47,606 nucleotides of DNA, taken from the NCBI GenBank assembly GCA_963711735.1, contig CAVQFA010000001.1, positions 1-47,606 of the forward strand. Direction: 5' to 3'. How positions within the stretch are numbered: the stretch's first letter is position 1; every line of letters starts with the position of its first letter. This DNA comes from Candidatus Gottesmanbacteria bacterium (GTDB lineage: Bacteria; Patescibacteriota; Microgenomatia; UBA10105; UBA927). The notes beneath the pieces were generated by a model. That model had not been told where the DNA came from, searched no databases, and saw only the letters and a program-made list of their open reading frames with translations. A program made the translations under genes and the position numbers. Shown in pieces: positions 4,341-36,362 of this stretch.

Positions 4341-4361
4341 CTTCAGATATCAACCGAACAA

Positions 4362-18547: not shown

Positions 18548-20257
18548 TTAGCGGACGAGTTTGAGGGTGAATTCCGAAATGGTGTCAGGAATAGTAAAAG
18601 AATAGGTTCCCGCGGAGAGCGGAACTTTTTGGGAATACATCTTCCCGTCAATTGTGACGGAATTGCCCTCGGGAACAGTTGCCAGGGTAAATGTTTCTCC
18701 TATCGGGATTGTCAGTGTTGCGGTTGCATCACCGAGCACCCTGTTGTCGGCGTCTGCCTGGAAGCATGATCCGTTATAACACAGGAATTTAACTCCGAGC
18801 GGATAGATTTTCCAGTTTTTGGCAGAAGGCAGATAGTTTTTTTTCAAAAAATCGAGGTCAGCAACTCTCGGTTGCCAGAGGGACATACCGGTCCTGTCAA
18901 GTATTATAAATTTCGTTTTTGTGGCTATAAGCGATTCGCGGAGCGTCGGAACTTTTCTGGAAAGATTATCGACAAATTCCTGGTACGGATGGCAGCAGAT
19001 GAAATACCCGTCGGGACGGAATACGTAGGAACCGACCATATCATAAACAGACTCACCACTTCGTATCATGGGCAAATCCGCAATGACACTCATCTGCTCG
19101 GTATTTGCCATCCCCGGAGATACGCGGAGTAGGTACTGTTGGGTAAACGATGTACCCAAAAGGAGAGCAAGTACTCCGTAACTTAGGATCATGATTCCAA
19201 TACCGAACTTCGGAACATGGAGTGTACCCGCAAGACGTATCAATGCGCGGATACAGTATATGTATAAATATGCGGAAAGAAATGCAGCAAACACGGAAAG
19301 CGGAAAGAAATACTGCAGATACGGAGCAGGAAAAAGAAAGAGAAATAGGATACCGGCTGCGAAGTATAGGAGGAAAAAAACACCGAATGCGGGTTTTTTT
19401 ATAAAGTAGAGGATTAAACCGGCAAGAGCGGTTATCCATATGCCGGTATTTACATACCACGGCAGGCTTGGTCCTCCCTCAGCCATATAAACAAGAGGCC
19501 ACGGGGAGAGTGCTTTCCACGGGGAAAACGGTGATTTTCCGGCATTCACCGCAACGGAATCACGTGTGATTGCAAGAAATGCATCCTGTAAAATACCATG
19601 AGAGACAAGATACACCATAAGGATGATGGCGGGTATGAGAGCGCCTAACAGAAACAGAACGATATTTTTCGGCCGCAGTATCTGTTTTGTCAGCATAAAA
19701 AGGTACAACAGTGCAGGGATCGCAAAAAGAATTTTCGGTAACATGAGAAATCCAAGTGATATGCTTGCTCCTCCCAACACAAGAAGAAGCGGTGTGAGGG
19801 GTTTGCTGTTTATGGCTATATATACAGGGATGAGGTAGAGAAGCATCATGAGGGTATCCGGCCGGATGTCTATGGTTTTATCAAATGTCATAGGGAAGGT
19901 GAGGAAAATTACGGCAGCAAGTATGGCGGTTGTTTTATCCGCAAATTTCCTGGAAAGCATGTAGATGAGAAATGTAACAGCAAGGTATGTGACAAGCTGG
20001 GACAAACGGGCGATAAGGAGTACATACCCTCCCGGCGGAAGGAGAAAAATGGGAATTTGTATCCACTGGAAAAACGGAGTTATGTAGAAAAAAAAGTCGC
20101 GGTACGGAATTTTCCCACTCGCCATAAGCCATACCCAGTGCATGTGGGAAAATTCGTCATTATCAAAATACCGGATGAGTGCGGTGTGGATTCTGGCTGC
20201 AATAATAAGGACTATGGCAACTTTTGTAAATATATTTCCGTTTACGATCCGCTTCAT
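18548..20257 (-). CDS. ArnT/PMT-like (GT39/GT83-type, GT-C fold) membrane glycosyltransferase-like protein.
   Basis: Long ORF. The first loop, RYFDNDEFSHMHWVWLMASGKIPYRDFFFYITP, resembles the acidic DE motif and G-x-x-P-Y-x-D of the ArnT/PMT_2 family. About 12 hydrophobic segments follow, then a soluble C-terminal ~170 aa. I placed the start at the ATG at 20257 (MKRIVNG); the track uses the TTG at 20290. Confidence 0.75.
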   Translation of the reverse strand: MKRIVNGNIFTKVAIVLIIAARIHTALIRYFDNDEFSHMHWVWLMASGKIPYRDFFFYITPFFQWIQIPIFLLPPGGYVLLIARLSQLVTYLAVTFLIYMLSRKFADKTTAILAAVIFLTFPMTFDKTIDIRPDTLMMLLYLIPVYIAINSKPLTPLLLVLGGASISLGFLMLPKILFAIPALLYLFMLTKQILRPKNIVLFLLGALIPAIILMVYLVSHGILQDAFLAITRDSVAVNAGKSPFSPWKALSPWPLVYMAEGGPSLPWYVNTGIWITALAGLILYFIKKPAFGVFFLLYFAAGILFLFLFPAPYLQYFFPLSVFAAFLSAYLYIYCIRALIRLAGTLHVPKFGIGIMILSYGVLALLLGTSFTQQYLLRVSPGMANTEQMSVIADLPMIRSGESVYDMVGSYVFRPDGYFICCHPYQEFVDNLSRKVPTLRESLIATKTKFIILDRTGMSLWQPRVADLDFLKKNYLPSAKNWKIYPLGVKFLCYNGSCFQADADNRVLGDATATLTIPIGETFTLATVPEGNSVTIDGKMYSQKVPLSAGTYSFTIPDTISEFTLKLVR

Positions 20258-20413
20258 ACACCCGTATGCTAGGGGATTTGTACCGCGCAATCAAGGGGAA
20301 CCACATACAACACCAAAACACACCTACTCCCGATTACCTGCCGGTTGGCGGATGCAAAGTGGTGCAGGAATGATATACTCATTGTGCACTGAAGTGCAAC
20401 TTCGTTGAATGAG

Positions 20414-20480
20414 TATAGACCCATCTAATCAGATTTTTCGCTTATGAAAGCTGCAAATCTGAGTAAGATGGGTATATATA
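20414..20480. repeat. Hairpin element, family member A. The arms resemble those of the palindrome-axis element.
   Basis: Sequence: tatagacccatctaatcagattt-loop-aaatctgagtaagatgggtatatata. It is the mirror of copy C (26808-26874). It lies in the divergent spacer between the 580-aa gene and the 534-aa homologue, next to a second hairpin (atactcatt 20375-20383 / aatgagtat 20408-20416). Confidence 0.7.
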
Positions 20481-20490
20481 CTTGGGATAT

Positions 20491-22090
20491 ATGAAATTAA
20501 ATAAAGACTTTATCATTGTTTTTTGCGTATCTTTCGTTGTAACCGTTGCCAGTCTTTACCAGACACTTTTATATATAAAAGTTACCCCCGAAGGTTTCGT
20601 GTATCCTTTAGTCCACAACTTCGAAGCAGACTACTACTGGTATTTGTCCCTTATAAGACAGGGGTGGGAGGGAAATATTCTTCTTACTTCCCGTTATACT
20701 CCGGAAATATTTTCACCCCAGTTTGTTAACACATTTTTTTCCGTGGCCGGAATGCTTGCACATACGCCCGGATTTTCTCTTCCACTTATATATACAATAC
20801 TTCGGGTTTTCGGGGGGGTAGCGGTATTTCTCATAACATATACGCTCCTTCAAATCCTTAAATTATCCCTCCGGCAGAGAATGTGTGCGTTTGCGCTTGT
20901 CATTCTCTCAACACCGTTTTGGTTTCTCACAAACGGCATTTTTCGTCAGGCGGGGAATTCTGGACGGGATTTGATCCGATACTCCGGATCACGTGGCTTC
21001 CTCATCATACATTTGCGCTTGCATCCGCAATCGGGAGTATTATAGTTTTCTCCCTGGGTTTTGCCCGGCAAAACTACCGGCATTTGATCTTCGCGGGACT
21101 CGTTATGGCTCTTACCGTATGGGTAAATCCGGCAAGCGCAATCATATTTCTTGCCGCGACAGTACTCGGAATGACCATAACCTTTATTCAAAAAATTAAT
21201 TTCGTAAGGAAACACGTAATGAAACTATTAACCGGAGCACTTGTATTTTTGGCAATTTCCGGTGTCCCGTTTCTTCTTCTATACACTGTCCAGAACAGTA
21301 CATTTCCGTGGACCGCTTTCAGGGATTGGGAGCAATTCCAGCAGTTATCCAATTGACGCGCTTGGGTATCTGAAGGTTCGTCGGAATAACGGGAACATTC
21401 TTGCAATTCCGGCATTTGGTTTGCCGCTAGGAAAAAAGAATTATTGTGGAATATCATCAGCCGGATGGTATGCAGTTCCGTTTATCGGACTTGCAATACT
21501 CTCAAAAGTATTGCCCCTATCCAACGGCAGATATCTGCAGGGAGGAGGATACATTCCCGCAGCAATTCTTACCACGCTTACCATATGGGAAATAGGATAC
21601 TATCTGCAAAAACGTTTACGCAAACAGGTATTCATACTGATTAGTATGTGCAACACTCGCGGCTTTTTCGTTTCCCTCGTTTGTTGCAAGTGTCGCCAGG
21701 CAGAATGTGTACGTGAGAAAAAATATGACCAACTCCCTTATTATGATTCCCCGGGATACCATGGACAGCATACAGTACCTGAGTGGCGTTTGCAGGGCAA
21801 ACGACGTGGTAATTGCTCCGATGGATGTTTCTACAATGATTCCTGCTTTCACATCATGTAAAACATTAGCCGGTCATCCGACGTTCACGTATAACAGTCC
21901 GCAAAAAGCAAAAGATATGGGCTTGTTCTACTGGACCGGGGATTTACGGGTGCGGAAACAGATCCTGGAAAAATACGGCGTACGGTTTGTCATTATACCT
22001 TCGTGGATGACACGGGCAGAGGAGTTGAAAGAGATGGGATACATAATCCGGAAGGTGAATGGAACTATGCGTATAGCAATGAGGAAGTAA
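20491..22090 (+). pseudogene. Multi-frameshift pseudogene of the 534-aa polytopic membrane protein, which is intact at 25202-26797.
   Basis: Homology to the intact copy runs through four overlapping ORFs in different frames: 20482-21045, 20883-21356, 21241-21861 and 21707-22090. Shifts fall near 20950, 21345 and 21640, and a scrambled stretch at 21375-21470 reads LKVRRNNGNILAIPAFGLPLGKKNYCGISSAGWY against LKVLGIAGILAIPGIWFAIRKKELLWNIIAGWY. Confidence 0.75.
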
Positions 22091-22099
22091 GATTTGCGT

Positions 22100-22936
22100 T
22101 TAATGAATTTTGAATTTGATCGATTTAATCAATGCATAGAGTGTCCAGACTGAAACGGAAATAATAACCGGCATAACCGGCGCTGACAGCCGAGCAAAAT
22201 CCTCATACCCCAGAAGCAGAGAGGTGAATAGCAGAAGAAAGGAAGATGTAAAAAGTATTCCTTCGTATATTGATATGTTATACGGCATCCCTTTATGTTT
22301 AATATACGAAGTGAGCAGGGTTATACCTCCCGATATTATACGGACTGCCGTTAACAGAAAGAGAATCATAATAATTCCCTGTATGGTGCGGGAAACGGTC
22401 TGCCCAACTTTAAGAAAAGTTGCAAACGGACGGTTTTTCTCCGACGGCTGGGTAATTTCCGGAGACAGAGACAAAAATGCATTGGGATAGTCTTTCAGTG
22501 TGCTGATCGCGTACGGTACAGGTTCTTTTCTCATGATGGTTTGCACAAATCCCTGAAGTTCTACAAGGTGGGCAGAATCCATATGAATCAACGGATCTAT
22601 TTCCTTAATAAATTTAAAGGGGTTCATTTCCTTATCAACACGTTTAAACTCCGTTAAACCGTTATAGAAAAACGGATACATCTGACCTCCTTCAATGGGA
22701 ATGTTGTCTTTCATAATACGACCCAATATACCTATGTCTCTCTGTATCTGGAATGCACGGATACCATGCAGGCGTCCGTTTCCGTAAGTCCATATAAAAA
22801 CCGGACTAAGGGAAATAACCAGGAACAGAAACCCTCCGAGAATTCGGAGATATTTCTTCTTCACCGTACTTACAATAATGAGAATTGTTGTAAGGAACGG
22901 ACCAATAGGGGAAAGGGACGGACGCATCAAAGGCAT
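22100..22936 (-). CDS. C-terminal half (278 aa) of the split left-arm homologue of the 470-aa membrane protein.
   Basis: It starts MPLMRPSLSPIG, aligning with APLIRPSLSPIG in the middle of the intact 470-aa paralogue. Its ATG overlaps the stop of the upstream half within ATGCCTTTGA (22927-22936). Confidence 0.55.
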   Translation of the reverse strand: MPLMRPSLSPIGPFLTTILIIVSTVKKKYLRILGGFLFLVISLSPVFIWTYGNGRLHGIRAFQIQRDIGILGRIMKDNIPIEGGQMYPFFYNGLTEFKRVDKEMNPFKFIKEIDPLIHMDSAHLVELQGFVQTIMRKEPVPYAISTLKDYPNAFLSLSPEITQPSEKNRPFATFLKVGQTVSRTIQGIIMILFLLTAVRIISGGITLLTSYIKHKGMPYNISIYEGILFTSSFLLLFTSLLLGYEDFARLSAPVMPVIISVSVWTLYALIKSIKFKIH

Positions 22937-23502
22937 GAGAAAGAGAAGGAGGAAAAGATGAAATAAGTAAAAAATGAAGAGGGAGAAAGGATATGGGATG
23001 AAAGAAAATATTTGTATATCCGGAAGAACGTGAGAGTCAGAAGAAGAACGGTAAATCCTGCAATACTTTCAGTCAGAAGCGTCCGTTCCCATGGAATTGT
23101 CATGAGGTTCGTGCCTGTCAGAAACGTACTTATCCAGATGACCAGGCGCGGTGCATTAACGATCTCGAGTATCCGGTACAGGAATATAACAGAAATGACA
23201 CCTGCCTGGAGAAACATGAGGAAATCCGCACCTCTCCCGAAGGCGGGAGAGGCAATCGGCGAATTGAAAGCGCCACTGAGGGCCATACTGGTATTTACGA
23301 TAATCGGGTATATCGGGGTGCGGTACGGGTTGATAATAGATGCAAGCGACGGATTCAGACCAATCGAAATTCCGTTTTGGTAGTATTCGTAACCATCCTG
23401 CGGAAGCTTGATGTAAGGCTGGTTTACAGATAAAGCGTACCGGATGAAAACGGATGCAATCAGTATTGCGATAAGCGGCAGAATGTGTCGCAAGGATTTC
23501 AT
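22927..23502 (-). CDS. N-terminal half of the split left-arm homologue of the 470-aa membrane protein.
   Basis: MKSLRHILPLIAILIASVFIRYAL.. aligns with MKYLRHLLPLITILIAAVFIRYAL.. of the 23780-25192 protein. The frame is lost in a low-complexity Ser/Phe/Leu linker. I placed the start at the ATG at 23502, which mirrors 23780; the track ORF extends to 23541. Confidence 0.55.
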   Translation of the reverse strand: MKSLRHILPLIAILIASVFIRYALSVNQPYIKLPQDGYEYYQNGISIGLNPSLASIINPYRTPIYPIIVNTSMALSGAFNSPIASPAFGRGADFLMFLQAGVISVIFLYRILEIVNAPRLVIWISTFLTGTNLMTIPWERTLLTESIAGFTVLLLTLTFFRIYKYFLSSHILSPSSFFTYFIFSSFSFSCL

Positions 23503-23539
23503 AAAGATACAAAGTTGATCTATTTTATGATTGACCTGC

Positions 23540-23742
23540 ATTATTTACAATCCTTCAGAAGACTGATATGAATGCCGAAAAACTACCCGTATGATAGTTT
23601 TCCGGTATATACCGATCTTACTTGGATTTGCCTCCGCCTGAAAAGGCGGAGAAAAATCTAATTAGATCGGTATATACCGGAAAACTATCATACGGGTAGT
23701 TTTTCGGCATTCATATCAGTCTTCTGAAGGATTGTAAATAAT
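23540..23742. repeat. Palindrome axis: perfect 79-nt inverted arms (23540-23618 and 23664-23742), a 45-nt spacer, and a nested hairpin CTCCGCC-tgaaaa-GGCGGAG (23632-23651).
   Basis: Direct reading shows attatttacaatccttcagaagactgatatgaatgccgaaaaactacccgtatgatagttttccggtatataccgatct and its exact reverse complement. The symmetry centre is 23641/23642. Confidence 0.95.
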
Positions 23743-23779
23743 CGAGGTCAATCATAAAATAGATCAACTTTGTCTCTTT

Positions 23780-25192
23780 ATGAAATACTTGCGACATCTT
23801 CTGCCGCTTATCACGATACTCATCGCGGCCGTTTTCATCCGGTATGCTTTATGGGTAAACCAGCCGTACATCAAGCTTCCGCAGGACGGGTACGAGTACT
23901 ATCAAAATGGAATTTCGATGGTTCTGCATCCGATTGTTGACACAATAATCAATCCGTACCGCACACCCATTTATCCGCTTATAGTGAGCGCAAGCATGGC
24001 CCTTAGTGGCGCTTTCAATTCGCCGATTGCCTCACCCGCCTTCGGGAGAGGTGCGGATTTCCTCATGTTTCTTCAGGCAATATGCGGTGTCATTTCGGTT
24101 ATATTCCTGTACCGAATACTCGAGATCGTTAATGCTCCGCGTATTGTTATCTGGATAAGTACGTTTCTTGCAGGCACGAACCTCATGACAATTCCGTGGG
24201 AACGGACGCTTCTGACTGAAAGTATTGCAGGACTCATCCTTCTTAGCCTCATACTCCTTTTCTTTCAGATACTACACGCATATTCCCATTACTCTAATTT
24301 TAAATTTCTAAGCGCTAAATTTCTTAGTCTCTCCCTTTCTTCATTACTCTTTGCACTTCTTCTTTTCCTCGCACCTTTGATCCGTCCGTCTCTTTCCCCT
24401 ATCGGTCCCGTGCTTGCAGCCATTCTCGTCTTTGTGGGTGCCGTAAAGAAAAAGCGTACCCTTACCTTCAAAGGACTGTTGTTCCTTGTCATTTCTGTCA
24501 GTCCTGTTTTTTTATGGATAAACGGCAACACACGTATCCACAAAATACACGCATTTCAGGTTCAGGGAGATATAAATATTTTAGGGCGCATCATGAAGGA
24601 TCGTATTTCCATAGAGGGAGCTAAATCGTATGCATTCTTCTATGATGGGCTCACACATTTCAGGATTGTCGATACGGAAATGAATCCGTATAAATTTACA
24701 AAAGACATTGATCCTCTCATACACACACATCCATCCCGCCTTACCGAGCTTCAGGGATTTGTGCGGACCGTTATGAGAAAAGAAGTCCTGCCGTATACAA
24801 TGGGTGCACTGAAGGACTATCCCAATACATTTTTATCTCTGTCTCCGGAAATTACCCTGCCGTCGGAGAAAAACCGCCCGTATGCGAAGCTTCTTAGCAT
24901 CGGGCAAACAATTTCCCGCGTTATGCTTGTGTGTGTAATGGTGCTTTTTGTCGTATCGGTTATGAGGATGTTCTGGTTATTTTTGTATACAGTAAAAAAA
25001 AGATGCTCTTCACAGGTTTCTCTGTATGAGGTATCGCTTATTGCTGTAGCGTCCGTATCGCTGTTGTTTAACCTGTTTTTCGGATATGAAGATTTTGCCC
25101 GGCTGTCAGCGCCGATTATGCCTGTTATTATTTCCGTTTCAGTCTGGACACTCAATGCATTGATGAAGTCGATTAAATTCAATATTCATTAA
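23780..25192 (+). CDS. Polytopic membrane protein (470 aa), intact copy.
   Basis: ATG-initiated ORF with hydrophobic N- and C-terminal blocks flanking a ~170-aa soluble middle. It is the paralogue of the split pair at 22100-23502. Confidence 0.8.
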   Translation: MKYLRHLLPLITILIAAVFIRYALWVNQPYIKLPQDGYEYYQNGISMVLHPIVDTIINPYRTPIYPLIVSASMALSGAFNSPIASPAFGRGADFLMFLQAICGVISVIFLYRILEIVNAPRIVIWISTFLAGTNLMTIPWERTLLTESIAGLILLSLILLFFQILHAYSHYSNFKFLSAKFLSLSLSSLLFALLLFLAPLIRPSLSPIGPVLAAILVFVGAVKKKRTLTFKGLLFLVISVSPVFLWINGNTRIHKIHAFQVQGDINILGRIMKDRISIEGAKSYAFFYDGLTHFRIVDTEMNPYKFTKDIDPLIHTHPSRLTELQGFVRTVMRKEVLPYTMGALKDYPNTFLSLSPEITLPSEKNRPYAKLLSIGQTISRVMLVCVMVLFVVSVMRMFWLFLYTVKKRCSSQVSLYEVSLIAVASVSLLFNLFFGYEDFARLSAPIMPVIISVSVWTLNALMKSIKFNIH

Positions 25193-25201
25193 ACACAAAT
25201 C

Positions 25202-26797
25202 TTATTTCCTCATTGCCACACGCATAGTTCCATTCACCTTCCGGGTTATGTATCCCATCTCTCCCAACTCATTTGCCCTTGTCATCCACGATGGTATAAC
25301 AACAAACCGTACATTGTATTTATCAAGTATCTTTTTGCGTACTTGTACATCCTGTGTCCAGTAGAACAGGTCCATATCTTTTGCTTTTTGCGGACTATTA
25401 TACGTGAATGTCGGATGACCGGCTAATGTTTTACATGATGTGAAAGCAGGAATCATCGTAGAAACATCCATCGGAGCAATTACCATGTCGTTTACTCTGC
25501 AAACGCCACTCAGGTACTGTATGCTGTCCATGGTATCCCGGGGAACCAGGATAAGAGGGTTGGTCATATTTTTTCTCACATACACATTCTGCCTGGCGAC
25601 ACTTGCAACAAACGAGGGAAGCGAAAAAGCCGCGAGTGTTGCACATGCTAATAGTATGAATACCTGTTTGCGCATGCTTTTTTGCAGATAAGATCCGGTT
25701 TCCCACAAGGCAAGTGTGGTAAGAATTGCCGCAGGGATATATCCTCCTCCCTGCAGATATCTGCCGTTGGAAAGGGGCAATACTTTTGTAAGTATTGCAA
25801 GTCCGATAAACGGAACTGCATACCATCCGGCTATGATATTCCACAATAATTCTTTTTTCCTGATGGCAAACCAAATACCGGGAATTGCAAGTATTCCCGC
25901 TATTCCGAGAACTTTCAAATACCCAAGTGCATCAATCGGATACTGTTGAAATTGTTCCCAATCCCTGAAAGCGGTCCATGGAAATATGCTGTTCTGTACG
26001 GCGTAAAGGAGAATAAACGGGACACCGGAAATTGCCAAAAATACAATTACTCCGATTAATAGTTTCACTACATGTTTCCTTACGAAGTTAATTTTTTGAA
26101 TGAAGGTTATGGTCATTCCGAGTACCGTCGCGGCAAGAAATATGATTGCGGATGCCGGATTTACCCATACGGTGACAGCCATAATAAGTCCCGCGAAGAT
26201 CAAATACCGGTAGTTTTGCCGAACCAAACCCAGAGAGAAAACTATAATACTCCCGATTGCGGATGCCAGTGCAAATGTATGATGCGGAAGCCACGTGATC
26301 CTGAGTATCGGATCAAATCCCGTCCAGAATTCCCCCGCCTGACTTAAAATGCCGTTTGTGAGAAACCAAAACGGTGTTGAGAGAATGACAAGCGCAAACG
26401 CACATATTCTCTGCCGTAGGGATAATGTAAGGATTTGAAGGAGCATATATGTTATGAGAAATACCGCTACCCCACCGAAAACCCGGAGAATTGTAAACGT
26501 CAGAGGAAGAGAAAATCCGGGTGTGTGTGCAAGCATTCCGGCTACGGAAAAAAATGTGTTAACAAACTGGGGTGAAAAAATTTCCGGAGTGTAGCGGGAA
26601 GTAAGAAGAATATTTCCCTCCCACCCCTGTCTCATAAGGGACAAATACCAGTAGTAGTCTGCTTCGAAGTTATGGACTAAAGGATACACGAAACCAACGG
26701 GTGTAACTTTTATATATAAGAGTGTCTGGTAAAGGCTGGCAACAGATACGACGAGAGATACGCAAAAAACAATTATAAAGTCTTTATTTAATTTCAT
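25202..26797 (-). CDS. Polytopic membrane protein (about 531 aa from the ATG), intact copy; possibly GT-C-like.
   Basis: Uninterrupted ORF with the ATG at 26797 (MKLNKDFIIVF); the track uses the TTG at 26806. About 12 hydrophobic segments are followed by a soluble C-terminal ~130 aa. The left-arm counterpart is a pseudogene. Confidence 0.8.
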   Translation of the reverse strand: MKLNKDFIIVFCVSLVVSVASLYQTLLYIKVTPVGFVYPLVHNFEADYYWYLSLMRQGWEGNILLTSRYTPEIFSPQFVNTFFSVAGMLAHTPGFSLPLTFTILRVFGGVAVFLITYMLLQILTLSLRQRICAFALVILSTPFWFLTNGILSQAGEFWTGFDPILRITWLPHHTFALASAIGSIIVFSLGLVRQNYRYLIFAGLIMAVTVWVNPASAIIFLAATVLGMTITFIQKINFVRKHVVKLLIGVIVFLAISGVPFILLYAVQNSIFPWTAFRDWEQFQQYPIDALGYLKVLGIAGILAIPGIWFAIRKKELLWNIIAGWYAVPFIGLAILTKVLPLSNGRYLQGGGYIPAAILTTLALWETGSYLQKSMRKQVFILLACATLAAFSLPSFVASVARQNVYVRKNMTNPLILVPRDTMDSIQYLSGVCRVNDMVIAPMDVSTMIPAFTSCKTLAGHPTFTYNSPQKAKDMDLFYWTQDVQVRKKILDKYNVRFVVIPSWMTRANELGEMGYITRKVNGTMRVAMRK

Positions 26798-26807
26798 ATA
26801 TCCCAAG

Positions 26808-26874
26808 TATATATACCCATCTTACTCAGATTTGCAGCTTTCATAAGCGAAAAATCTGATTAGATGGGTCTATA
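26808..26874. repeat. Hairpin element, family member C (mirror of A).
   Basis: Sequence: tatatatacccatcttactcagattt-loop-aaatctgattagatgggtctata. The 5' arm matches the axis element at 21 of 24 positions and the 3' arm at 20 of 23. Confidence 0.7.
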
Positions 26875-27030
26875 CTCATTAGAGCGATGTTGCACTTCAG
26901 TGCACAATGAGTATATCATTCCCGCACCACTTTGCATCCGCCAACCGGCAGAAGATCGGGGGAGGTGTGTTTTGGTGTTGTATGTAGTTCCTCTTGATTG
27001 CGCGGTACAAATCCCCTAGCATACGGGTGT

Positions 27031-28742
27031 ATGAAGCGGATCGTAAACGGAAATATTTTTGCGAAAGTTGCCATAGTCCTTATTGTTGCAGCGAGAATCC
27101 ATACCGCGCTCATCCGGTATTTTGATAATGACGAGTTTTCCCATATGCACTGGGTATGGCTTATGGCGAATGGGAAAATTCCGTACCGCGACTTTTTTTT
27201 CTACATAACTCCGTTTTTCCAGTGGATACAAATTCCCATTTTTCTCCTTCCGCCGGGAGGGTATGTACTCCTTATCGCCCGTTTGTCCCAGCTTGTCACA
27301 TACCTTGCCGTTACATTTCTCATCTACATGCTTTCCAAAAAATTTGCAGACAAAACAACCGCCATACTTGCTGCCGTAATTTTTCTCACCTTCCCTATGA
27401 CATTTGACAAAACCATAGACATTCGACCGGATACCCTCATGATGCTCCTCTACCTCATTCCTGTATATTTAGCCATAAACAGCAAACCCCTCACACCGTT
27501 TCTTCTCGTGCTGGGAGGAGCAAGCATATCGCTTGGGTTTCTCATGTTACCGAAAATTCTTTTTGCGATCCCTGCACTTTTATACCTTTTTATGCTGACA
27601 AAACAGATACTGCGGCCGAAAAATATCGCTCTGTTTCTGTTAGGCGCTCTCATACCCGCTATCATTCTGATTGTGTATCTTGTCTCTCATGGTATTATGC
27701 AGGATGCATTCTATGCAATTACACGCGATTCCGTTGCGGTGAATGCCGGAAAATCACCGTTTTCTCCGTGGAAAGCACTCTCCCCGTGGCCTCTTGTTTA
27801 TATGGCCGGGGGTGGTCCGAGCCTGCCGTGGTATGTAAATACCGGCATATGGATAACCGCTCTTGCCGGTTTAATTCTCTACTTTATAAAAAAACCCGCA
27901 TACGGTGTGTTTCTTCCTCCTTTATTTCGCAGCCGGTATCCTATTTCTCTTTCTTTTCCCTGCTCCGTATCTGCAGTATTTCTTTCCGCTTTCCGTGTTT
28001 GCCTCATTTCTTTCCGCATACTTATATATATACTGTATCCGCGCATTGGTACGTCTCGCGGGTTCACTCCATGTTCCGAAGCTCGGAAAAGTGATCGTTG
28101 TCCTGTGTTACGGAGTACTTGCTCTCCTTTTGGGTACATCGTTTACCCAACAGTACCTACTCCGGTATCTCCGGGAATGGCAAATACCGAACAGATGAGT
28201 GTCATTTCGGATTTGCCCATGATACGAAGTGATGAGCCTGTTTATGATATGGTCGGTTCCTACGTATTCCGTCCCGACGGGTATTTCATCTGCTGCCATC
28301 CGTACCAGGAATTTGTCGATCATCTTTCCAAAAAAGTTCCGACGCTCCGCGAATCACTTGTTGCTACAAAAACGAAATTCATCAATACTTGACAGGACCG
28401 GTATGTCCCTCTGGCAACCGACGTCAGGCAGACCTCGATTTTTTGAAAAAAAACTACCTGCCTTCTGCTAAAAACTGGAAAATCTATCCGCTCGGGGTTA
28501 AATTCCTGTGTTACAACGGGTCATGCTTCCGGGCAGACGCCGACAACAGGGTACTCGGTGATACAACCGCAACACTGACAATCCCGATAGGAGAAACATT
28601 TACCCTGGTAACTGTTCCGCAGGGCAACACTGTCACTATTGACGGGAAGATGTATTCCCAAAAAGTTCCGCTCTCCGCGGGAACCTATTCTTTTACTGTT
28701 CCTCACACCATTTCGGAATTCACCCTCAAACTAATCCGCTAA
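27031..28742 (+). pseudogene. Frameshifted copy of the 580-aa ArnT/PMT-like GT-C gene.
   Basis: Homology to 18548-20257 leaves the main frame at ~27905 (the correct residues FFLLYFAAGILFLFLFPAPYLQYFF.. appear in ORF 27905-28198) and returns at ~28165. It is lost again at ~28385 (TKFINT-stop against TKFIILDRTGMSLWQP) and resumes in ORF 28389-28742. Confidence 0.7.
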
Positions 28743-28853
28743 GGGACCTATTCTTTCTGTTTAATTGTTTTTTTCACAATCAATTCGTAAATCGAATCTC
28801 GCAAATCGATCCTAATGCTTTACACTTTCCCCTCTTTTTGCTAGTCTATTGCC

Positions 28854-29610
28854 ATGAGTGAAACAGATGATATTCTGGAACCGCTTATTCCGGATGAAAA
28901 AAATCTTCCGAAAATAGTGATTGCCGTGTCAGTAGCTGTGATTCTCTCTTTCTGCAATCACAATCGGCGCGTACCAGTATTCTAAAAAACGCGCAACGGC
29001 AATCGTGCTTCCCGGCGGGACTACATACCTCGGTCCTTCACTGTCCCCCCAACCTACGCAGGCACCTGTTACCATTTCCAAAACGTTCACCGTTTCGCCG
29101 ACAACCCCCTGGGTAGAACATAAAGGCAAGGTGTACCCCTTCACGTTTTCCTATCCGGAAACCATGAAACTTACGCTGTTTCCCGGTGACCAAACAGACT
29201 CCATAGGATTTGGCTTTAACGGAATTCCTCCGCAAAATATCATCATTTTCCGCGTGTCGGATATAAATAAAATCGAGCCTTCCATGACTCAGTATATAAA
29301 CAAGCCGAAAATCGATTACGTGAAAAATTGGTGGACGCAGTATACAGGAGGACTCAAAGGTGTCAAATCCGTAGAGGAATTTGTTAACGCTAAGGGTATG
29401 AAAGGATATAAAGCAAAATATCTCAATCACGCAAACCAGACACCAAACGACGATGTCTTTTTCGAAATACCGGGTCGTCCTGAACTGATGGTACGCTTCG
29501 GAAACGGTCCTATCGATGCAGAAGTATTTTCCCGTATCATCGATTCATTTGCATGGGGTAAATCATCAAATCCGCTTCCTCCGACTGCCGCTCCCACACC
29601 CGCACAATAA
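28854..29610 (+). pseudogene. Frameshifted copy of the 251-aa membrane-anchored protein gene.
   Basis: The ATG at 28854 gives MSETDDILEPLIPDEKNLPKIVIAVSVAVIL. One extra nt (gtgattctctctttctgc against gtgattcttctttctgc in the left arm) then shifts the frame to a stop near 28982. The remaining ORF, 29005-29610, lacks the TM anchor. Confidence 0.65.
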
Positions 29611-29696
29611 TTATTCTCACAATATAATTATCTTCCCATTTCGCTACAACACACAGCCTACGACGTACAACATAATAACCGACCGCTCACAACCTA

Positions 29697-31337
29697 CTAC
29701 TCACATCCTGCCGGCTTTACGTCCGTGAAACGGTACACACTCGTTGTATCAAATGACCGTGCACGCATGAGGAACGGGTAACCGGTTACGGCACTCCCCT
29801 GATCTTGTTCATCATATCCGTCAAACACGGCGGTTATGTTGTTATCTTTCAGCAAATGGTATCCGTCGCAGACAGGAAGTGTGCCGTGGTAAAAATTCCA
29901 TGCCAGGGAAAGCTTTCTATCCAGATCTTTCGTATACGAATGAATGCTGTTTACATACACACGCCTGTTTGTATACGTCGGTATTATCCGCGCAGCAAGA
30001 GGCAACGCAAGAATGTTCTCGCCCGGTTTTGTTATTCCGTCCAGTGCTTGTATTGCACTTATCCATCCGCGGGACGGGTATACAAAGCGCTCGTCCATAA
30101 ATACATTCCCAATTTGCTCTTTGAGGGATGACGGGTATCCGATAAATGTAATTATTAGATATGCACCGATGAACATCGTGGAAATGATGCGCCTAAATCG
30201 GATAGAGCTTAGATATGCGATGAATTTCGATGCGAGTATCGACATCGGTATCCATGGAGCCATCTGTAAAAATCTGATATTGGAAACGGACAGTTCCCTC
30301 AGAAGTGCGTTTGGACTGTATTTGAGCATTCCTATCCGGTCCAAAAGCATAATTGATAAACCTGCCCAAAGAGCAAGAAGTATTGTTTCCTTTTTTTTCC
30401 ATCCCGTGATAAGACCCATGATGGCAAGAATAAAAACAGGGCCAAGTGCCAGAAGATATTCCGGGGTTGGTGCATACCATATCGTTTGTTCATACGGCAA
30501 AGCCAGATTCCACGGAAACCGGGAGATCATTCCTTTGAGAAGGAGAAGTGAAGTTGAAGCAAATCCGAGAGCAACGACGCTGTACAAAAGTGCCCTGAAA
30601 CGCCGACAAAGCAGTGCCCACAGAGAAACAGTGGGGAAAAGTATGAGGAGACTTGGCGGATGGATAAATCCCGCAATCCACCCGAATATAGCGAGCATTA
30701 ACCACCATAGTATCTTTTTCGTCCGGTCAAATTGCCACACGGACAAAATACTGAGCGTAAGAAGTATATGTCCAAGAAGGTAATGCGGAAGAAAGGTGAA
30801 GCGTATGATGGGATTTAACTCAGACCACCAAGTCATGTACCATTGGATATCAACTCTTCCGTTTACCCAAGTGAAGTACGGGAAGCTTGCTGAGGTCAAT
30901 GCAAAGAAAAACGCAATGATCCGATTAATCTTTTTCTCAATAAATACCCTCACAAACAGGTAAATAATGAGAACCCACAAAATACCGAAAAAGATACGCG
31001 CAGTGAGATAAACGACATGCGCGTCGTGAATCCCCACTCCCCTTCCAAACCAGCCAAGCATGAGATAAAATAGATGAACATATCCGCCGTTTTGCGCTTC
31101 GGTTGTAAACTGTCCGTACACCCTCTGGCTTCCGTCAATGCCCTCACGTACGATGCTTACATAATACGGATAATCGCTGACACTGTTATGAATCGGTATG
31201 AAGTACGCATTGTTTGGGGTATTTCTCCATTGAATGAGAAGCGGAGCTATGGAGAGTGCGAGCATAGTCAAAGCGATAAGCGTTATCCATAGAATCTCGC
31301 TTTTCAAAACTTTCTGCATGCCTGTATCATACAACAT
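29697..31337 (-). CDS. Polytopic integral membrane protein (546 aa), paralogue of 15960-17600.
   Basis: Same length and same start peptide (MLYDTGMQKV) as its paralogue. The two differ by scattered, mostly conservative substitutions. Confidence 0.8.
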   Translation of the reverse strand: MLYDTGMQKVLKSEILWITLIALTMLALSIAPLLIQWRNTPNNAYFIPIHNSVSDYPYYVSIVREGIDGSQRVYGQFTTEAQNGGYVHLFYLMLGWFGRGVGIHDAHVVYLTARIFFGILWVLIIYLFVRVFIEKKINRIIAFFFALTSASFPYFTWVNGRVDIQWYMTWWSELNPIIRFTFLPHYLLGHILLTLSILSVWQFDRTKKILWWLMLAIFGWIAGFIHPPSLLILFPTVSLWALLCRRFRALLYSVVALGFASTSLLLLKGMISRFPWNLALPYEQTIWYAPTPEYLLALGPVFILAIMGLITGWKKKETILLALWAGLSIMLLDRIGMLKYSPNALLRELSVSNIRFLQMAPWIPMSILASKFIAYLSSIRFRRIISTMFIGAYLIITFIGYPSSLKEQIGNVFMDERFVYPSRGWISAIQALDGITKPGENILALPLAARIIPTYTNRRVYVNSIHSYTKDLDRKLSLAWNFYHGTLPVCDGYHLLKDNNITAVFDGYDEQDQGSAVTGYPFLMRARSFDTTSVYRFTDVKPAGCE

Positions 31338-31424
31338 TGCCGGAATCGATTTACAATTTAAGGTTTAATAATCGTAAATCATTACATATGTTCTCTCTTT
31401 ACTCCCGACCTTCTTTTTGTCACA

Positions 31425-33359
31425 ATGAGTGTCATGGATGGAATGACATCTGCCCAAAATATATACCGCCGGATTGTCCGTATATTCCGAAAGTATCCCA
31501 CCCTCTGGATTCCGGTTGTTTTTGCAGCAGGTTTTATTATCCGCCTCGTATTTCTTCCCAACCGCGGATTTGAAGCGGACATCTCGTTCTGGAAATCCTG
31601 GGGACTTGCGGTTTACGACCACGGGATCGTCTGGGGGATAAAAAACACCAACAACAATTACCCGACTGCGTTTGCGTATGTCCTCGGGCTTATGACCAAA
31701 ACGTATAGTTTTTTTGCCGACCCGCATAATTTCCAACAGTATTGGTCCAATACCAATTCATTGTTCCTCACCATTTCCAAGCTCCCGGCAGTATTTGCTG
31801 ATTTTGGAATATTTGCCATCATTCTGTATTTCGGTAAATATGCCGCGGTGCTCGGTTTTCCGCAATTTTCCTCAGTCGTTTATATCCTTGCTGCTGCATC
31901 CATTCTTCTCAATCCGATCACGGTTATAGACGGAGCGTGGTGGGGACAGGTAGACAGCCTCGGTGTATTTGTTTTTCTCATCGCTGTACTTCTTGCTCTG
32001 AAAAAAAGACCGTATCTGGCCGGATTTATATACATGGCATCCATGATGACCAAACTTCAGAATATGGTCTACGGCCCTGTATTTTTCATCTTTCTCTGGC
32101 AGTTAACGGGTTTTTCCGGGCTCATCCGTGGTGTTGCTGGTGCCGCAACTGCCTTTATCGGGCTTAACTGGGAATTTTTCATCGCCAAAGAAATGAAGCT
32201 TGTGTTTGATCAGCTCACCGTCAACTACGATTATTTCCCCTTCATGTCCCTCAATGCCTACAACCTCTGGTGGATTGTGGCAAAAGCAAACGGCATGCAT
32301 ATGCTTGACAAGTTTTCTGTTGTCGGCATGACAAACGCCAAAACCACGGGACTTTTCCTTTTCGCGTCATCATACCTCTACGCATGCATCATAATGGTAA
32401 AAGAAACCGTACTCCGCATGGCGAAGCGTACCATAGAACCGCCTTCGGATTTGGAAATACAGAATATCCTCTACAGGTTTTTCACTGCCATGATCGTTGT
32501 TGCCGGTGCATTTTTCCTGTTCCAGACAGAATCGCACGACCGGTATGCATTTCCCATCATTGTGTATCTGCCAATCTGGCTTTTTTTTTTCCTGTGGACC
32601 GGGTCGTCAAAAAAAGAACGGTTATCACTTTTTACAACGCGGCTGTTTAAAATAAGTGCCGCCGCATTTGTAGTCTTTACGATCGTGTACTTTTTTAATC
32701 TCCACAACGCACTTGTCGACAACTATCCGCAAAACGGTTTGCCGATACTTCGTGATATGAACATCCCACTATTTACACTCATAACAGCATACCTCCAAAT
32801 GATCCTCTTCGGAGTATTCCTTTTTGCAGTTACCCGGCACGTCCCCGGTTTTTTCTATATCATTCCGGTATCTGCATTTGCCGCACTCATGCTCGTTTCC
32901 AATTTGCCGCTTATCACGAAATCGCCGGTTTATATTACGAAGTTTTTTCCGATTATAAGCCAGCAGAATTACGGAGTCAGGCGCGTTAATATGCCTGTTG
33001 CACTTGAGAATAATTCCAAAACATGGTCCCGGCTCAGCGTCCAGTATGCATTTTATCGGAACGGGTACGGCACGCACGCCAAAAGCTACCAGCAATTCAA
33101 CATTAACGGGTTATTTAAAAAATTTACAACGGATTACGGTATCGACACGGAAGCAGGACCAAACGGTTCCGCGACATTTGAAATTTACGGTGATGATAAA
33201 CCGCTCTTTGTATCCAAACCCATCAAACGATTCGATTTACCCAAACACATAGAGGTCGATGTGACGGGAGTAAAAATGCTCGGACTTGTGACCAACGATG
33301 CGGGAGACGGGATCAACGATGACCATACGGATTGGCTCAATGCTATGTTATGGCCATAA
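31425..33359 (+). CDS. GT-C-type membrane protein with a C-terminal NPCBM-like module, paralogue of 13823-15757.
   Basis: 644 codons with 17 aa differences from the left copy by my count. None of them fall in the first ~310 residues. Confidence 0.85.
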   Translation: MSVMDGMTSAQNIYRRIVRIFRKYPTLWIPVVFAAGFIIRLVFLPNRGFEADISFWKSWGLAVYDHGIVWGIKNTNNNYPTAFAYVLGLMTKTYSFFADPHNFQQYWSNTNSLFLTISKLPAVFADFGIFAIILYFGKYAAVLGFPQFSSVVYILAAASILLNPITVIDGAWWGQVDSLGVFVFLIAVLLALKKRPYLAGFIYMASMMTKLQNMVYGPVFFIFLWQLTGFSGLIRGVAGAATAFIGLNWEFFIAKEMKLVFDQLTVNYDYFPFMSLNAYNLWWIVAKANGMHMLDKFSVVGMTNAKTTGLFLFASSYLYACIIMVKETVLRMAKRTIEPPSDLEIQNILYRFFTAMIVVAGAFFLFQTESHDRYAFPIIVYLPIWLFFFLWTGSSKKERLSLFTTRLFKISAAAFVVFTIVYFFNLHNALVDNYPQNGLPILRDMNIPLFTLITAYLQMILFGVFLFAVTRHVPGFFYIIPVSAFAALMLVSNLPLITKSPVYITKFFPIISQQNYGVRRVNMPVALENNSKTWSRLSVQYAFYRNGYGTHAKSYQQFNINGLFKKFTTDYGIDTEAGPNGSATFEIYGDDKPLFVSKPIKRFDLPKHIEVDVTGVKMLGLVTNDAGDGINDDHTDWLNAMLWP

Positions 33360-33581
33360 GATACATAGAAGTTTAGCTATTAGAAGAATAATAAAAAAGA
33401 ATACAAGGAGGTGAAGGTAATAATTTTGAAATGCACTGCAGATTCGCTCTGTTGAAACTAACGAATTAATCTGTATATATATGCGAATCTGCATTGAGCA
33501 AAGTATGGTATAGCGATTAACAGTTCTGAAAGAATAACTTTACGTCATTTTAAAATTCGTTACTGAACCTCCGCAAGTCTT

Positions 33582-36146
33582 ATGAAATTTGGTATCAGAC
33601 ATATCGAAAAAATAATAGCTATCGGTATTTTATTGTATGCGACGTGGTTTAACATGGATTTATACCGCCTTGAACCGTTGTCGAAAGTGGATCCTAATGA
33701 CAATACGTTTCAGTATGCGCTCGTTGACCGGGCAAACACCGTTTGGGATTTCGCATCACGTCAGTGCGCGAAACAGGTCCTCATCGCAAGACCTCTCTGC
33801 CACATATCATACATGGTCGACCATTGGGTACCGAACTGGGCGCAGGGGTATAACCTTCCCTACTATTACTCCCATATCCCGCAGATAGTCATCGTCGGTT
33901 CATACCGGATATTGCATGCTCTCGGGTTACACCTCACGTTATTCCAGTACTATCACTGGGTTATTTATTTTCTCTTATGTCTGTTTCCTTTATCCGTTTT
34001 TATAGCAATCCGAGTTATCCGCGCGCCGTGGATTATTGCAGGTGCCGGAGCAATTCTTGCAGCACATATATCTACAGACGGGCTTTACGGACTCGACCCT
34101 CCCTCGTTTCTGTGGCGCGGATGGGGTCTTTCGAGCCAGCTGTTTGCCATGATCTGGATGCCGCCTGCAATAGCATACGCATGGAGATATATAACTTCCA
34201 ATATTGTTACATCAACCGGCGGTTTAGGTGTTCAAATTCTTGAAGAGTTAAAGATTTGTTTACCGTTTTTACGGAATTTTAAACGTTCAGAGGATGCGGA
34301 CGCAGCGAAAAACGGAAATAATCATATTGATTCCGTGCAAACGCGTGATTTTTATCTGGCGGTTATCTTTACGATTGCCGCAACGATGGGTCATTTGGGA
34401 TTCGGTATCATGACGCTTCTTTCTATCGGTGCAATTGCTCTTGCGCCTGCCGTCTCTATGGCATTATCCCAGGAACATTTAACGGACATCTGGAATGTCT
34501 TTCTTCTGTCCATGATCCGTCTTGCCTGTATCGGTGTTACAGTTGTATTTTTCCTCTCCTACTGGATAATCCCTGTACTTCTTGGAAACAACTACCACAA
34601 CATATCCTACTGGGATCCTGTTTGGAAATTCGACTCCTACGGCTGGAAGGAAGTCGTCATAAAATTCTTAAACGGTGAACTGTTTGACTTTAACCGCTTC
34701 CCTGTTATGACACTGCTTATCCTTTTTGGGTTTTTTACCGCACCGTTTATAACCCTGATAAACGGCGTACGGTCTCATGTCAACGGAAAAAATAGTAAAA
34801 ATACTCCGGATACAACCGGTTCGTCAACCGTCCGTCAGTCTCCATACTTCGCATTTTCCTTCCTGTTTGCTTTCTGGATGCTCCTTTATTTCGGACGCAC
34901 CACATGGAAAGGTCTTGTTGATCTCATTCCCGGCATGACGGAATTCCATTTGTCCAGGTTTCTCGTCGGTGTGCATGTTGCCGGACTCATCCTCATGCCT
35001 ATCGGCATCTGGTATGTATCGGAATGGGTTATAACATACCTGAGTATCCGTTTTACATCTCTTAAAAAATTAGGAGACGGTAACGCGCGCAGAATTGCCC
35101 TTATTGCGTTTACCGCATCCGTACTCCTTATCATTACTCCACCCATTTACAGACAAACCGTATATTACAACGAATTGAATAATCGTTTAATCCTACAGGG
35201 AAATGACAATTATAATAAACAGGCTCCTGATATTGATAAGCTCGTCACCCGTTTAAAGTCACTCCCGCCCGCACGGGTGTTTGTCGGACGGGGCGGCGGA
35301 TGGGGTAAAAATTTCCGGATAGCGGAAACCGAGATGTTCATGTATATATCAACATACGGACTCAATACAGCTCTCTGGCTCCCGGAAACATGGTCCCCGA
35401 ACTCCGATACGGAACAGTATTTCTCCGAAGATCTTGCGAAAGATTATGATTTGTTTAATCTACACTATGTGGCAAGCCCGCCTGATGTCACTCCGCAACC
35501 GTTCTGGGAGGAAAAAGAACGCTCAGCAAGCTGGGTTCTCTATGAAGTTCCGACGAGCGGATACTTTGTGCCGGCAACACGCACCATGCGGATCGTCTCT
35601 GATAAAACGAACCTCATAAATATCGTCCGCAGATGGATCCAGTCAGATCTCACCAAACTTCGTCTCTTCCCGGAAATACGCTTCTCCCAGCCTGATCCGA
35701 TAGAAAAGTACCGCGTTCCGACTATCACGATGACGGATGAAGTGACATATTTAACTGCGTCGCATGAAAGACAGAATATCTGGGAGATAAACCCGCTCTA
35801 TGGCGGGGATGCACCGAAAGTGACTCTTTTGGGTCCTGAGAAAGTAGATGCGGACCAGATATTTACGACAACTGTCAAAGTGGATGAAGGCTGCAAGGAG
35901 TGTTTTCTTGTTCTTAAACAGTCTTTTCATCCCAACTGGAAGGCAACTGTTAACGGAATTAGCGTGAAACCGATCATTATGTTTCCTTTTTTCATCGGCA
36001 TACCGCTTGAACACCCCGGGGTTGCGGAGGTAACCGTCTGGTACCAACCGATGACCGCAAAAACCATCCTCATCGTCATAGCTCTCCTTACTGCTCTTGC
36101 CATACCCGTTACACCACATATTCTTCGCGCTCTCCGCAAAAAGTAA
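33582..36146 (+). CDS. YfhO-like polytopic membrane protein, paralogue of 11035-13599.
   Basis: 854-codon ORF starting MKFGIRHIEK, with the same C-terminal FHPNWKATVNG..VWYQP and terminal TM. Confidence 0.8.
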   Translation: MKFGIRHIEKIIAIGILLYATWFNMDLYRLEPLSKVDPNDNTFQYALVDRANTVWDFASRQCAKQVLIARPLCHISYMVDHWVPNWAQGYNLPYYYSHIPQIVIVGSYRILHALGLHLTLFQYYHWVIYFLLCLFPLSVFIAIRVIRAPWIIAGAGAILAAHISTDGLYGLDPPSFLWRGWGLSSQLFAMIWMPPAIAYAWRYITSNIVTSTGGLGVQILEELKICLPFLRNFKRSEDADAAKNGNNHIDSVQTRDFYLAVIFTIAATMGHLGFGIMTLLSIGAIALAPAVSMALSQEHLTDIWNVFLLSMIRLACIGVTVVFFLSYWIIPVLLGNNYHNISYWDPVWKFDSYGWKEVVIKFLNGELFDFNRFPVMTLLILFGFFTAPFITLINGVRSHVNGKNSKNTPDTTGSSTVRQSPYFAFSFLFAFWMLLYFGRTTWKGLVDLIPGMTEFHLSRFLVGVHVAGLILMPIGIWYVSEWVITYLSIRFTSLKKLGDGNARRIALIAFTASVLLIITPPIYRQTVYYNELNNRLILQGNDNYNKQAPDIDKLVTRLKSLPPARVFVGRGGGWGKNFRIAETEMFMYISTYGLNTALWLPETWSPNSDTEQYFSEDLAKDYDLFNLHYVASPPDVTPQPFWEEKERSASWVLYEVPTSGYFVPATRTMRIVSDKTNLINIVRRWIQSDLTKLRLFPEIRFSQPDPIEKYRVPTITMTDEVTYLTASHERQNIWEINPLYGGDAPKVTLLGPEKVDADQIFTTTVKVDEGCKECFLVLKQSFHPNWKATVNGISVKPIIMFPFFIGIPLEHPGVAEVTVWYQPMTAKTILIVIALLTALAIPVTPHILRALRKK

Positions 36147-36362
36147 ACTCGTTTCGGGGTTTAATAGTACAATAATTCTTTATAATCCTCTTTCAATATT
36201 AAATTATTGTCATAAAGGCGTACTGTCGCGAATAAAACATTATTCCGCTCTGCAAAAAAACAAGTGGTATTTCCCGAGGATTTTTTATACTCAGTAATGT
36301 AATTTTAGTCGGATATAATGATATTTTTTTTTCTAATATAAATATACCTTTGGGAGATAATC

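Follow-up and report, generated by a model that had tools for sequence, protein, structure and literature searches.

The window analysed here, the whole contig CAVQFA010000001.1 of Candidatus Gottesmanbacteria bacterium (47,606 nt), is one giant imperfect palindrome whose inverted arms carry the same genes of a predicted cell-envelope glycosylation module. In the right arm two neighbouring genes of the module, one for a putative GT-C-type membrane glycosyltransferase (580 amino acids, aa) and one for a membrane-anchored protein of 251 aa, have lost their reading frames, and their left-arm partners are uninterrupted; in the two pairs nearer the axis (proteins of 470 and 534 aa) it is the left copy that is broken. 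In all four pairs next to the axis exactly one copy is intact, as had been claimed in the original prediction, which was made from the sequence alone. We put at roughly 0.5 the probability that a single genome truly carries this inverted duplication and that the frameshifted copies are young pseudogenes distributed in a complementary way.

Results

Frameshifts in the right arm

The two broken right-arm copies and their intact left-arm partners are as follows.

27031..28742, plus strand: right-arm copy of the GT-C (PMT_2 / GT39-like) gene, frameshifted (from the arm alignment, tblastn and a frame map; the PMT_2 match is on the left partner)
28854..29610, plus strand: right-arm copy of the 251-aa membrane-anchored partner, frameshifted (from the arm alignment and tblastn)
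18548..20257, minus strand: left-arm intact GT-C gene, 569 aa from the ATG at 20257; the open reading frame (ORF) reaches a TTG at 20290
17686..18441, minus strand: left-arm intact 251-aa gene, with an N-terminal helix (aa 15-45), a linker and an alpha/beta ectodomain

The right GT-C copy begins at the same ATG (27031) as its left partner and carries four 1-nt insertions or deletions (indels) in the arm-to-arm nucleotide alignment: an added C at 27909/10, a lost G at 28165, an added G at 28383/4 and one added base at 28428/9. Its ancestral frame (position modulo 3) is 1 from 27031, 2 from 27910, 1 from 28165, 2 from 28384 and 0 from 28429. The out-of-frame segment predicted at about 260 nt was found to be 256 nt long (27910-28165), the further shifts expected around 28385-28425 correspond to the last two insertions, and from 28384 the frame is permanently lost. 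When the left protein is compared with the right arm by tblastn, aa 1-451 fall on 27031-28383 and aa 464-569 on 28422-28739 in another frame; these last 106 codons persist with 92% identity. As written, the right copy is a 453-aa ORF (27031-28392) containing an 85-codon out-of-frame stretch, which displaces three predicted membrane segments (aa 293-378).

No stop occurs among the 85 shifted codons. The intact left copy is open in that alternative frame too (ORF 19053-19460), and for this reason we rejected the lack of stops as a sign that selection holds the stretch open.

The lesion of the right 251-aa copy is a single extra G in AGAGAG (28946/7, codon 31/32), lying inside the predicted membrane helix (aa 15-45), where a 1-nt insertion had been expected at about 28940. 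The first 31 aa (28854-28946) are 100% identical to the left copy, and aa 32-251 (220 codons) follow at 28948-29607 in another frame with 95% identity; as written, the product has 43 aa and then a stop. In both right-arm genes the frame is disrupted relative to the intact paralogue and to the orthologues. The left partners are uninterrupted and match in length the 90 (GT-C) and 98 (251 aa) aligned homologues, so that they were rightly taken to be intact. Automated annotation would list two truncated GT-C or 251-aa proteins and would overlook the palindrome.

The other inner pairs

The two pairs between these genes and the axis show the opposite arrangement.

20482..22090, plus strand: left-arm broken gene for a 534-aa multi-pass membrane protein, four overlapping ORFs
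22100..23541, minus strand: left-arm broken gene for a 470-aa ORFan membrane protein, two ORFs of 204 and 278 aa
25202..26806, minus strand: right-arm intact gene for the 534-aa multi-pass membrane protein, a distant paralogue of the 546-aa genes
23780..25192, plus strand: right-arm intact gene for the 470-aa ORFan, eight hydrophobic segments

Seven small indels are present in the left 534-aa copy (at 20951, 21345, 21380, 21398, 21408, 21458 and 21639), of which one compensated pair reaches a stop at 21045; the left 470-aa copy has a net frameshift near 22930-22980. The intact right 534-aa protein is 44-46% identical to the gene that is divergent from GT-C in related genomes. The 470-aa protein has no homologue outside the contig, its sole match among 5.8 billion proteins being its own left-arm fragment, and the states "intact" and "broken" of its two copies are defined by the two-arm comparison alone.

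The intact copies had been described as alternating between the arms. This wording does not hold: the broken copies run left, left, right, right, i.e., they form two adjacent blocks with a single switch point between left 19379 and 20951. In this interval of 1.6 kb the arms are 94-95% identical, with exact runs of 138 nt (19980-20117) and 106 nt (20408-20513). The joint loss of the 580-aa and 251-aa genes is unsurprising, because the two form a tandem on one strand, separated by 112 nt. The three distal pairs (546, 644 and 868/854 aa) were also said to be intact in both arms, which agrees with our data: they are uninterrupted and under purifying selection, with a ratio of nonsynonymous to synonymous divergence (dN/dS) of 0.05-0.17.

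Arms and axis of the palindrome

The homologous parts of the arms and the axis region are listed below.

7460..39718, no strand: continuously alignable part of the arms, 7460-23639 against 39718-23644 (1429 substitutions, 28 indels)
663-2051 / 46606-45222 and 5156-5328 / 39933-39761, no strand: further homologous stretches of the arms, from the arm comparison
23542..23740, no strand: axis region, two 76-nt blocks and an imperfect centre

The axis lies at 23641/42, and the left arm (7460-23639) aligns collinearly with the reverse complement of the right one (39718-23644) at 90% identity and in the same gene order. Perfect 76-nt inverted blocks (23542-23617 and 23665-23740) enclose an imperfect centre; its core is an 8-bp stem (23632-23639 / 23644-23651) with a GAAA loop (23640-23643), and about 14 imperfect bases stand on each side between the stem and the 76-nt blocks. 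The self-complementarity of the junction itself is only about 20 nt, and the loop, GAAA when read from one arm, is TTTC when read from the other. Searches of genome, metagenome and viral collections with a 50-nt block from near the axis gave no match.

The 76-nt blocks are perfect though the adjoining non-coding DNA differs by 5-12%. Mirror promoter-like sites (TTGTAA-17-TAAAAT) occur in this region at 23732-23760 on the plus strand and at 23550-23522 on the minus strand. The blocks may reflect constraint on a promoter region or else recent conversion.

Divergence between the arms

Over the 16.2 kb of aligned arms, the 1429 substitutions stand against 28 indels, and in every pair the substitutions are biased to third codon positions (positions 1/2/3: 17/4/89 in the 644-aa pair, 8/3/38 in the 251-aa pair and 25/14/69 in the 580-aa pair). 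The synonymous divergence dS (Nei-Gojobori) is 0.19-0.25 in most pairs and 0.375 in the 546-aa pair, with dN/dS of 0.05-0.27; the 470-aa pair is the most diverged of all (dS 0.80, dN 0.22). The third-position bias and the dS of about 0.2 show that each arm has evolved separately as coding sequence, and that the two are not readings of a single molecule. A plain fold-back artefact was rejected considering that the differences are dominated by substitutions with third-position bias, and that the arms carry non-homologous cassettes and arm-specific terminal repeats (described below for the giant gene).

The identity of the arms is a mosaic. There are 13 difference-free gaps of at least 100 nt between the arms, against 0.08 expected, one exact run being 324 nt long, and the third-position divergence varies from 0 to 34% per 50 codons. 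Such a pattern indicates gene conversion or recombination between the two sequences. The candidate conversion tracts, exact or near-exact, are 13784-14107 (324 nt), 11735-11985 (251 nt) and 9260-9660 (about 400 nt); they lie inside genes that otherwise differ by 20-30% at third codon positions.

A 115-nt intergenic indel (15812-15926) was noted between the 644-aa and 546-aa genes; the left arm has this segment and the right arm is without it.

Selection on the broken copies

The pattern of broken genes had been ascribed to relaxed selection on redundant duplicates; the substitutions show no sign of this. With the indels removed, dN/dS is 0.11 for the 251-aa pair, 0.17 for the 580-aa pair, 0.21 for the 534-aa pair and 0.27 for the 470-aa pair, i.e., inside the range of the intact pairs (0.05-0.26) except that the 470-aa pair is marginally above it. 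No stop occurs in the ancestral frame of any broken copy. The derived changes, polarised with two outgroups, are symmetric: the broken and the intact copy have 8 and 6 derived residues in the 580-aa pair, 3 and 1 in the 251-aa pair, and 10 and 9 in the third pair. The departures from the family majority number 2 in the broken and 3 in the intact 580-aa copy (90 homologues), and 0 and 1 in the 251-aa copies (98 homologues). In the right 580-aa and 251-aa copies we found no raised dN/dS, no stops and no excess of derived residues. Both copies were under purifying selection for nearly the whole time of divergence; therefore, the frameshifts are either young or not real.

Distribution of the indels

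All of the approximately 13 frameshifting indels fall in the 5.5 kb of the inner four pairs, never in both copies of any pair, and the aligned outer coding sequence (9.5 kb) is free of them. Of the indels in the outer 10 kb, all are intergenic but one, an in-frame indel of 3 nt. By our estimate, the probability of such clustering under a uniform rate is about (5.5/15)^13, or 2e-6, and uniform sequencing error is rejected by it. The original prediction that random error is unlikely was sound to this extent; the ORFs of 9.3 and 4.7 kb cited for it are uninterrupted, but they are pieces of a giant gene broken in both arms.

The indel density is 1.3-4.4 per kb in the broken genes against about 9 per kb in the intergenic DNA of the same arms, which differs between the arms by 59 substitutions in 1.08 kb. 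A limited neutral period could produce this many indels in the broken genes; the numbers of substitutions are too low to rule it out. Several indels are a gain or loss of an adjacent base or dinucleotide (AGAG, ACAC, G4/G5, C2/C3), which is a signature of replication slippage. The lesions of the 251-aa, 580-aa and 534-aa copies are all indels of 1-2 nt; the 470-aa copy also has indels of 3-15 nt, and there are no nonsense substitutions. Some indels cancel in pairs (27909/28165; 20951/21345; 21380 with 21398; 21408/21458). About 3 of the 12 small indels are in runs of at least three identical bases, without a common motif, and no homopolymer or motif-linked error signature was found at the indel sites.

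The module and its relatives

The protein homologues place the organism with Candidatus Gottesmanbacteria and other Patescibacteria. The left GT-C protein has a marginal match to Pfam PF13231 PMT_2 (27.1 bits against a cut-off of 26.1, E 5.6e-6, aa 72-221), and many of its homologues are annotated with PF13231 or named "glycosyltransferase family 39". A weak match in PDB is glycosylphosphatidylinositol (GPI) mannosyltransferase 1 (E 0.014). A hydropathy scan finds at least 6 hydrophobic stretches between aa 3 and 372, i.e., a multi-pass topology, and from these homologies the 580-aa protein is predicted to be a GT-C-type membrane glycosyltransferase, PMT_2 / GT39-like. Its closest homologue outside the contig is only 52% identical, and look-ups of the contig's exact proteins gave no result.

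The 251-aa family is uncharacterised and has about 100 members, which come from bacteria of the candidate phyla radiation (CPR) wherever the source names the organism. The AlphaFold 2 model (mean pLDDT 85.6) consists of a membrane helix, a linker and an alpha/beta ectodomain. The best Foldseek match of the ectodomain is 2lnj (CyanoP; E 3.5e-4, TM-score 0.52 by target and 0.38 by query, 11% identity), with DcrB, LpqN and MTC28 lower in the list; the modelled ectodomain thus weakly resembles proteins of the PsbP / DcrB / LpqN type.

As for the other genes, the 644-aa protein has a C-terminal NPCBM domain, and the 868-aa protein has no Pfam match here, related proteins giving weak matches to YfhO. 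The 470-, 534- and 546-aa multi-pass membrane proteins have no match in Pfam, and nothing was found in NCBIfam for eight proteins. The tRNA and Rfam scans of the window gave nothing. The 534-aa and 546-aa proteins (15960-17600, 25202-26806 and 29697-31337) are distant paralogues with 23-24% identity over about 475 aa; they belong to a multi-pass family without a Pfam model, and the relatives have more copies of it upstream of the module.

Five related loci have the order 534 <- -> 580, 251, (variable), 644, 868, and most of fourteen metagenome contigs have at least the 251-644(-868) core. In each of the 19 related loci examined the module is present once. Judging by homology, it looks like one functional unit for extracytoplasmic glycosylation; what we say on the functions of its genes is likewise at the homology level. 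Each arm alone is an incomplete module, and both arms together make exactly one complete set. Complementary retention is biologically sensible, because the module is conserved as a single copy in relatives and neither arm is complete.

The giant gene at the arm ends

The outer end of each arm is occupied by a giant gene of about 3,300 codons (1-10818 and 36363-47606). Its N-terminal part of about 400 aa is 87-91% identical and its C-terminal 1,115 aa are 90% identical between the arms; the central 1,500-1,800 aa are unrelated apart from a 74-aa patch, so that the centre looks like a swapped or hypervariable cassette. The pieces of this gene have no match in Pfam or NCBIfam. In the left gene an in-frame TAG (4338-4340) interrupts the ORF, which reopens at 4362 without a change of frame; there is also a frameshift somewhere between 6046 and 6126. 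In the right gene a TTT at about 45625 is shortened to TT, and this 1-nt deletion separates an N-terminal ORF of 331 aa from one of 3092 aa. We do not extend the rule of one intact copy per pair to the giant gene because it is interrupted in both arms.

Both ends of the contig lie in direct repeats about 2,410 nt apart (66-607 / 2478-3017 and 44260-44943 / 46670-47356). These are 96-100% identical, with exact matches of at least 300 nt, and each is private to the cassette of its own arm. This suggests tandem paralogues of the giant gene beyond the contig ends, which would explain why the assembly stops there. Since the end repeats are arm-specific, the arms are not mirror copies.

Discussion

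We propose that a cell-envelope glycosylation module is present twice in the contig, as diverged copies in inverted orientation that meet head to head at a short hairpin; the duplicated module would include the genes for the 470-aa, 534-aa, GT-C 580-aa, 251-aa, 546-aa, 644-aa NPCBM and 868-aa YfhO-like proteins and the giant gene. The duplication may have arisen by fold-back or template switching at the 8-bp inverted repeat. The arms would then have drifted apart until dS was about 0.2; meanwhile purifying selection would have acted on most genes in both arms, and the arms would occasionally have exchanged sequence by gene conversion. Later, slippage-type indels would have inactivated the right-arm GT-C-251 transcription unit (co-transcription is presumed, hence the joint loss). 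This loss would have been tolerated as the left copies supply the function, and the left 534-aa and 470-aa copies would have been disabled in a complementary manner, so that the arms together would constitute one complete module with spare copies of the 546-, 644- and 868-aa genes.

We infer that both arms belong to one genome and that the indels are real mutations. The palindrome in one genome is supported indirectly by the complementary lesions in a conserved module and by the conversion-like tracts, and the divergence of the arms also favours a real structure. In our judgement, k-mer or overlap assemblers would not accidentally join two populations at a junction overlap of about 20 nt, and the axis lies on a short natural hairpin, as snap-back and template-switch models predict.

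A number of points weigh against this proposal. The broken copies show no relaxed constraint, which is how intact genes with assembly or consensus indel errors would look. Duplicates kept by selection to dS of about 0.2 and then lost four times nearly simultaneously do not follow the usual quick loss. Insertions exceed deletions in the broken copies by about 9 to 3, and bacterial pseudogenes are usually deletion-biased; this excess, together with the indels cancelling in pairs, is somewhat unusual for natural decay. In model bacteria a long palindrome whose loop is 4 nt and whose perfect inner arms are 76 nt would be unstable. The contig is all palindrome, with no unique flank tying it to a chromosome; no inverted self-similarity of at least 300 nt was found in the 17 testable of the 19 related loci; and no close relative was found to back either arm (best GT-C match 52%).

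The most serious competitor, possible but in our opinion doubtful, is that the frameshifts are assembly, consensus or polishing errors, so that all pairs are intact in the organism and there is no decay. Apart from their indels, the broken copies are as well preserved as the intact ones (dN/dS 0.11-0.27, no in-frame stops, balanced counts of derived residues), their lesions are small indels among which insertions dominate, several cancel in pairs and none is a nonsense change, and exact runs of up to 324 nt shared by the arms are hard to assemble and polish. However, such errors must have struck four neighbouring genes at 1-4 per kb, and different genes in each arm, yet have spared about 36 kb of other coding sequence. 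Context-dependent systematic errors should strike both near-identical arms at the same sites, which is not so, and with about 3 of 12 small indels in homopolymers and no motif the lesions are unlike the known homopolymer or motif-linked errors of long reads; short-read assemblies, in turn, rarely carry indel errors. It is unlikely, for other reasons, that the arms are two related populations (about 90-94% nucleotide identity) joined head to head by a chimeric read or by the assembler, in which case the pairs would be orthologues. CPR genomes are small, so that a duplication of 2 x 23 kb or larger would be unusual, and the relatives have the module once; symmetric divergence with third-position bias under purifying selection is just what orthologues of two strains would show, and the contig is made up of the palindrome alone, each arm breaking off at the corresponding place. 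Whole-genome amplification is known to yield palindromic chimeric reads (PMC13265396). However, fold-back chimeras copy one molecule and their arms should be identical. Each population would, moreover, lack a part of the conserved module, the losses being exactly complementary by coincidence; the join shares only a 20-nt hairpin with the loop GAAA against TTTC, too little overlap for the assembler to join; and no other contig with the proteins of either arm is present in the collection of 5.8 billion proteins.

Two further explanations accept the palindrome and its lesions. One arm may have lost the contiguous genes 470-534-580-251, without any reciprocity, and a single crossover may have flipped the centre, or the assembler may have switched phase. 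Recombination between inverted repeats inverts the intervening segment without loss, the conversion-like tracts indicate that the arms do recombine, and the broken genes fall into two contiguous blocks, the single switch (left 19379-20951) being located where the arms are 94-95% identical and share the exact runs of 138 and 106 nt. The order left, left, right, right could be due to one crossover or one phase switch just as well as to independent losses. Nevertheless, the sequence holds no record of such an event, patterns with a single switch make up 6 of the 16 outcomes under independent random loss, so that a crossover is not needed, and the tandem position of the 580-aa and 251-aa genes already explains their joint loss; we regard this version as improbable. 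Still harder to accept, and given very little weight by us, is that the right copies remain in use, as a split or truncated GT-C protein (453 aa, with a recoded stretch) and an anchorless protein of 201 aa from the GTG at 29005. The +1/-1 pair at 27909 and 28165 does restore the frame, the codons between them are free of stops, and the downstream parts of the right copies are 91-95% identical to the intact copies. Yet the alternative frame, open in the left copy too, must have been so before the shift and requires no selection, the shifted stretch displaces three predicted membrane segments (aa 293-378), the comparable compensated pair in the left 534-aa copy does hit a stop (21045), and a 251-aa ectodomain without its membrane helix would have no predicted export signal.

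If the inverted duplication with complementary pseudogenes is real, a CPR bacterium with a reduced genome can maintain a very large, diverged inverted duplication of a locus of cell-surface glycosylation, and the contig is a clean natural bacterial example of complementary gene loss combined with arm-to-arm conversion. In practice, the finding flags a contig that needs validation at the level of reads before its gene content is counted.

A bolder view would make the palindrome itself the object of interest: a long-lived structure of at least 47 kb in a CPR bacterium, with conversion between the arms, a symmetric junction surviving to dS of about 0.2, several envelope glycosyltransferases each retained in two functional copies, and a pair of genes for giant surface proteins with unrelated central cassettes. 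It would be a bacterial counterpart of the Y-chromosome palindromes, perhaps holding or shuffling genes of surface variation, with complementary loss as a by-product. We mention this as a speculation with little chance of being correct.

Comparison with known systems

No paper on inverted duplications in CPR bacteria was found in our literature search, and the comparisons are therefore with other systems. Silencing of duplicates is described for a 29-kb tandem inverted GSTT2 duplication in primates (PMC3375281). The contig is similar to such cases of reciprocal loss in duplicated blocks in that a multi-gene block is present twice, some pairs have one copy disabled by small lesions, and other pairs are both kept under purifying selection. 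It is dissimilar in that the host is a bacterium with a presumably very small genome, only small indels are observed without relaxed constraint, and the sharing of one genome by both copies is a presumption.

With the artefactual fold-back reads and contigs that result from whole-genome amplification or missed hairpin adapters (PMC13265396), the contig shares the property of being all palindrome with almost no unique centre. It differs from them by 1429 mostly synonymous substitutions, by the non-homologous cassettes of the giant gene and by the arm-specific terminal repeats. The papers on palindrome artefacts of assemblers deal with exact palindromes only, so that diverged arms are not explained by them.

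A model of the Roth laboratory reportedly derives tandem inverted duplications in enteric bacteria from snap-back or template switching at short quasi-palindromes. The axis of our contig, lying exactly on a short inverted repeat (an 8-bp stem with a 4-nt loop), fits this model. Duplications of this kind are young and nearly identical, and are quickly remodelled by deletions that remove the symmetric junction; here, in contrast, the junction is still symmetric at dS of about 0.2, and the distal junction is off the contig.

Finally, primate Y-chromosome palindromes are said (Rozen et al., in 2003) to undergo gene conversion from arm to arm. The likeness consists in inverted arms with gene pairs and in fully identical patches amid diverged sequence, consistent with conversion. 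On the other hand, the arms here are about 90% identical rather than more than 99.9%, the spacer is effectively 4 nt rather than kilobases, and the frameshifts have not been repaired by conversion. The loss of one copy of a redundant pair is textbook matter, and palindromes with conversion between the arms are also of a known kind.

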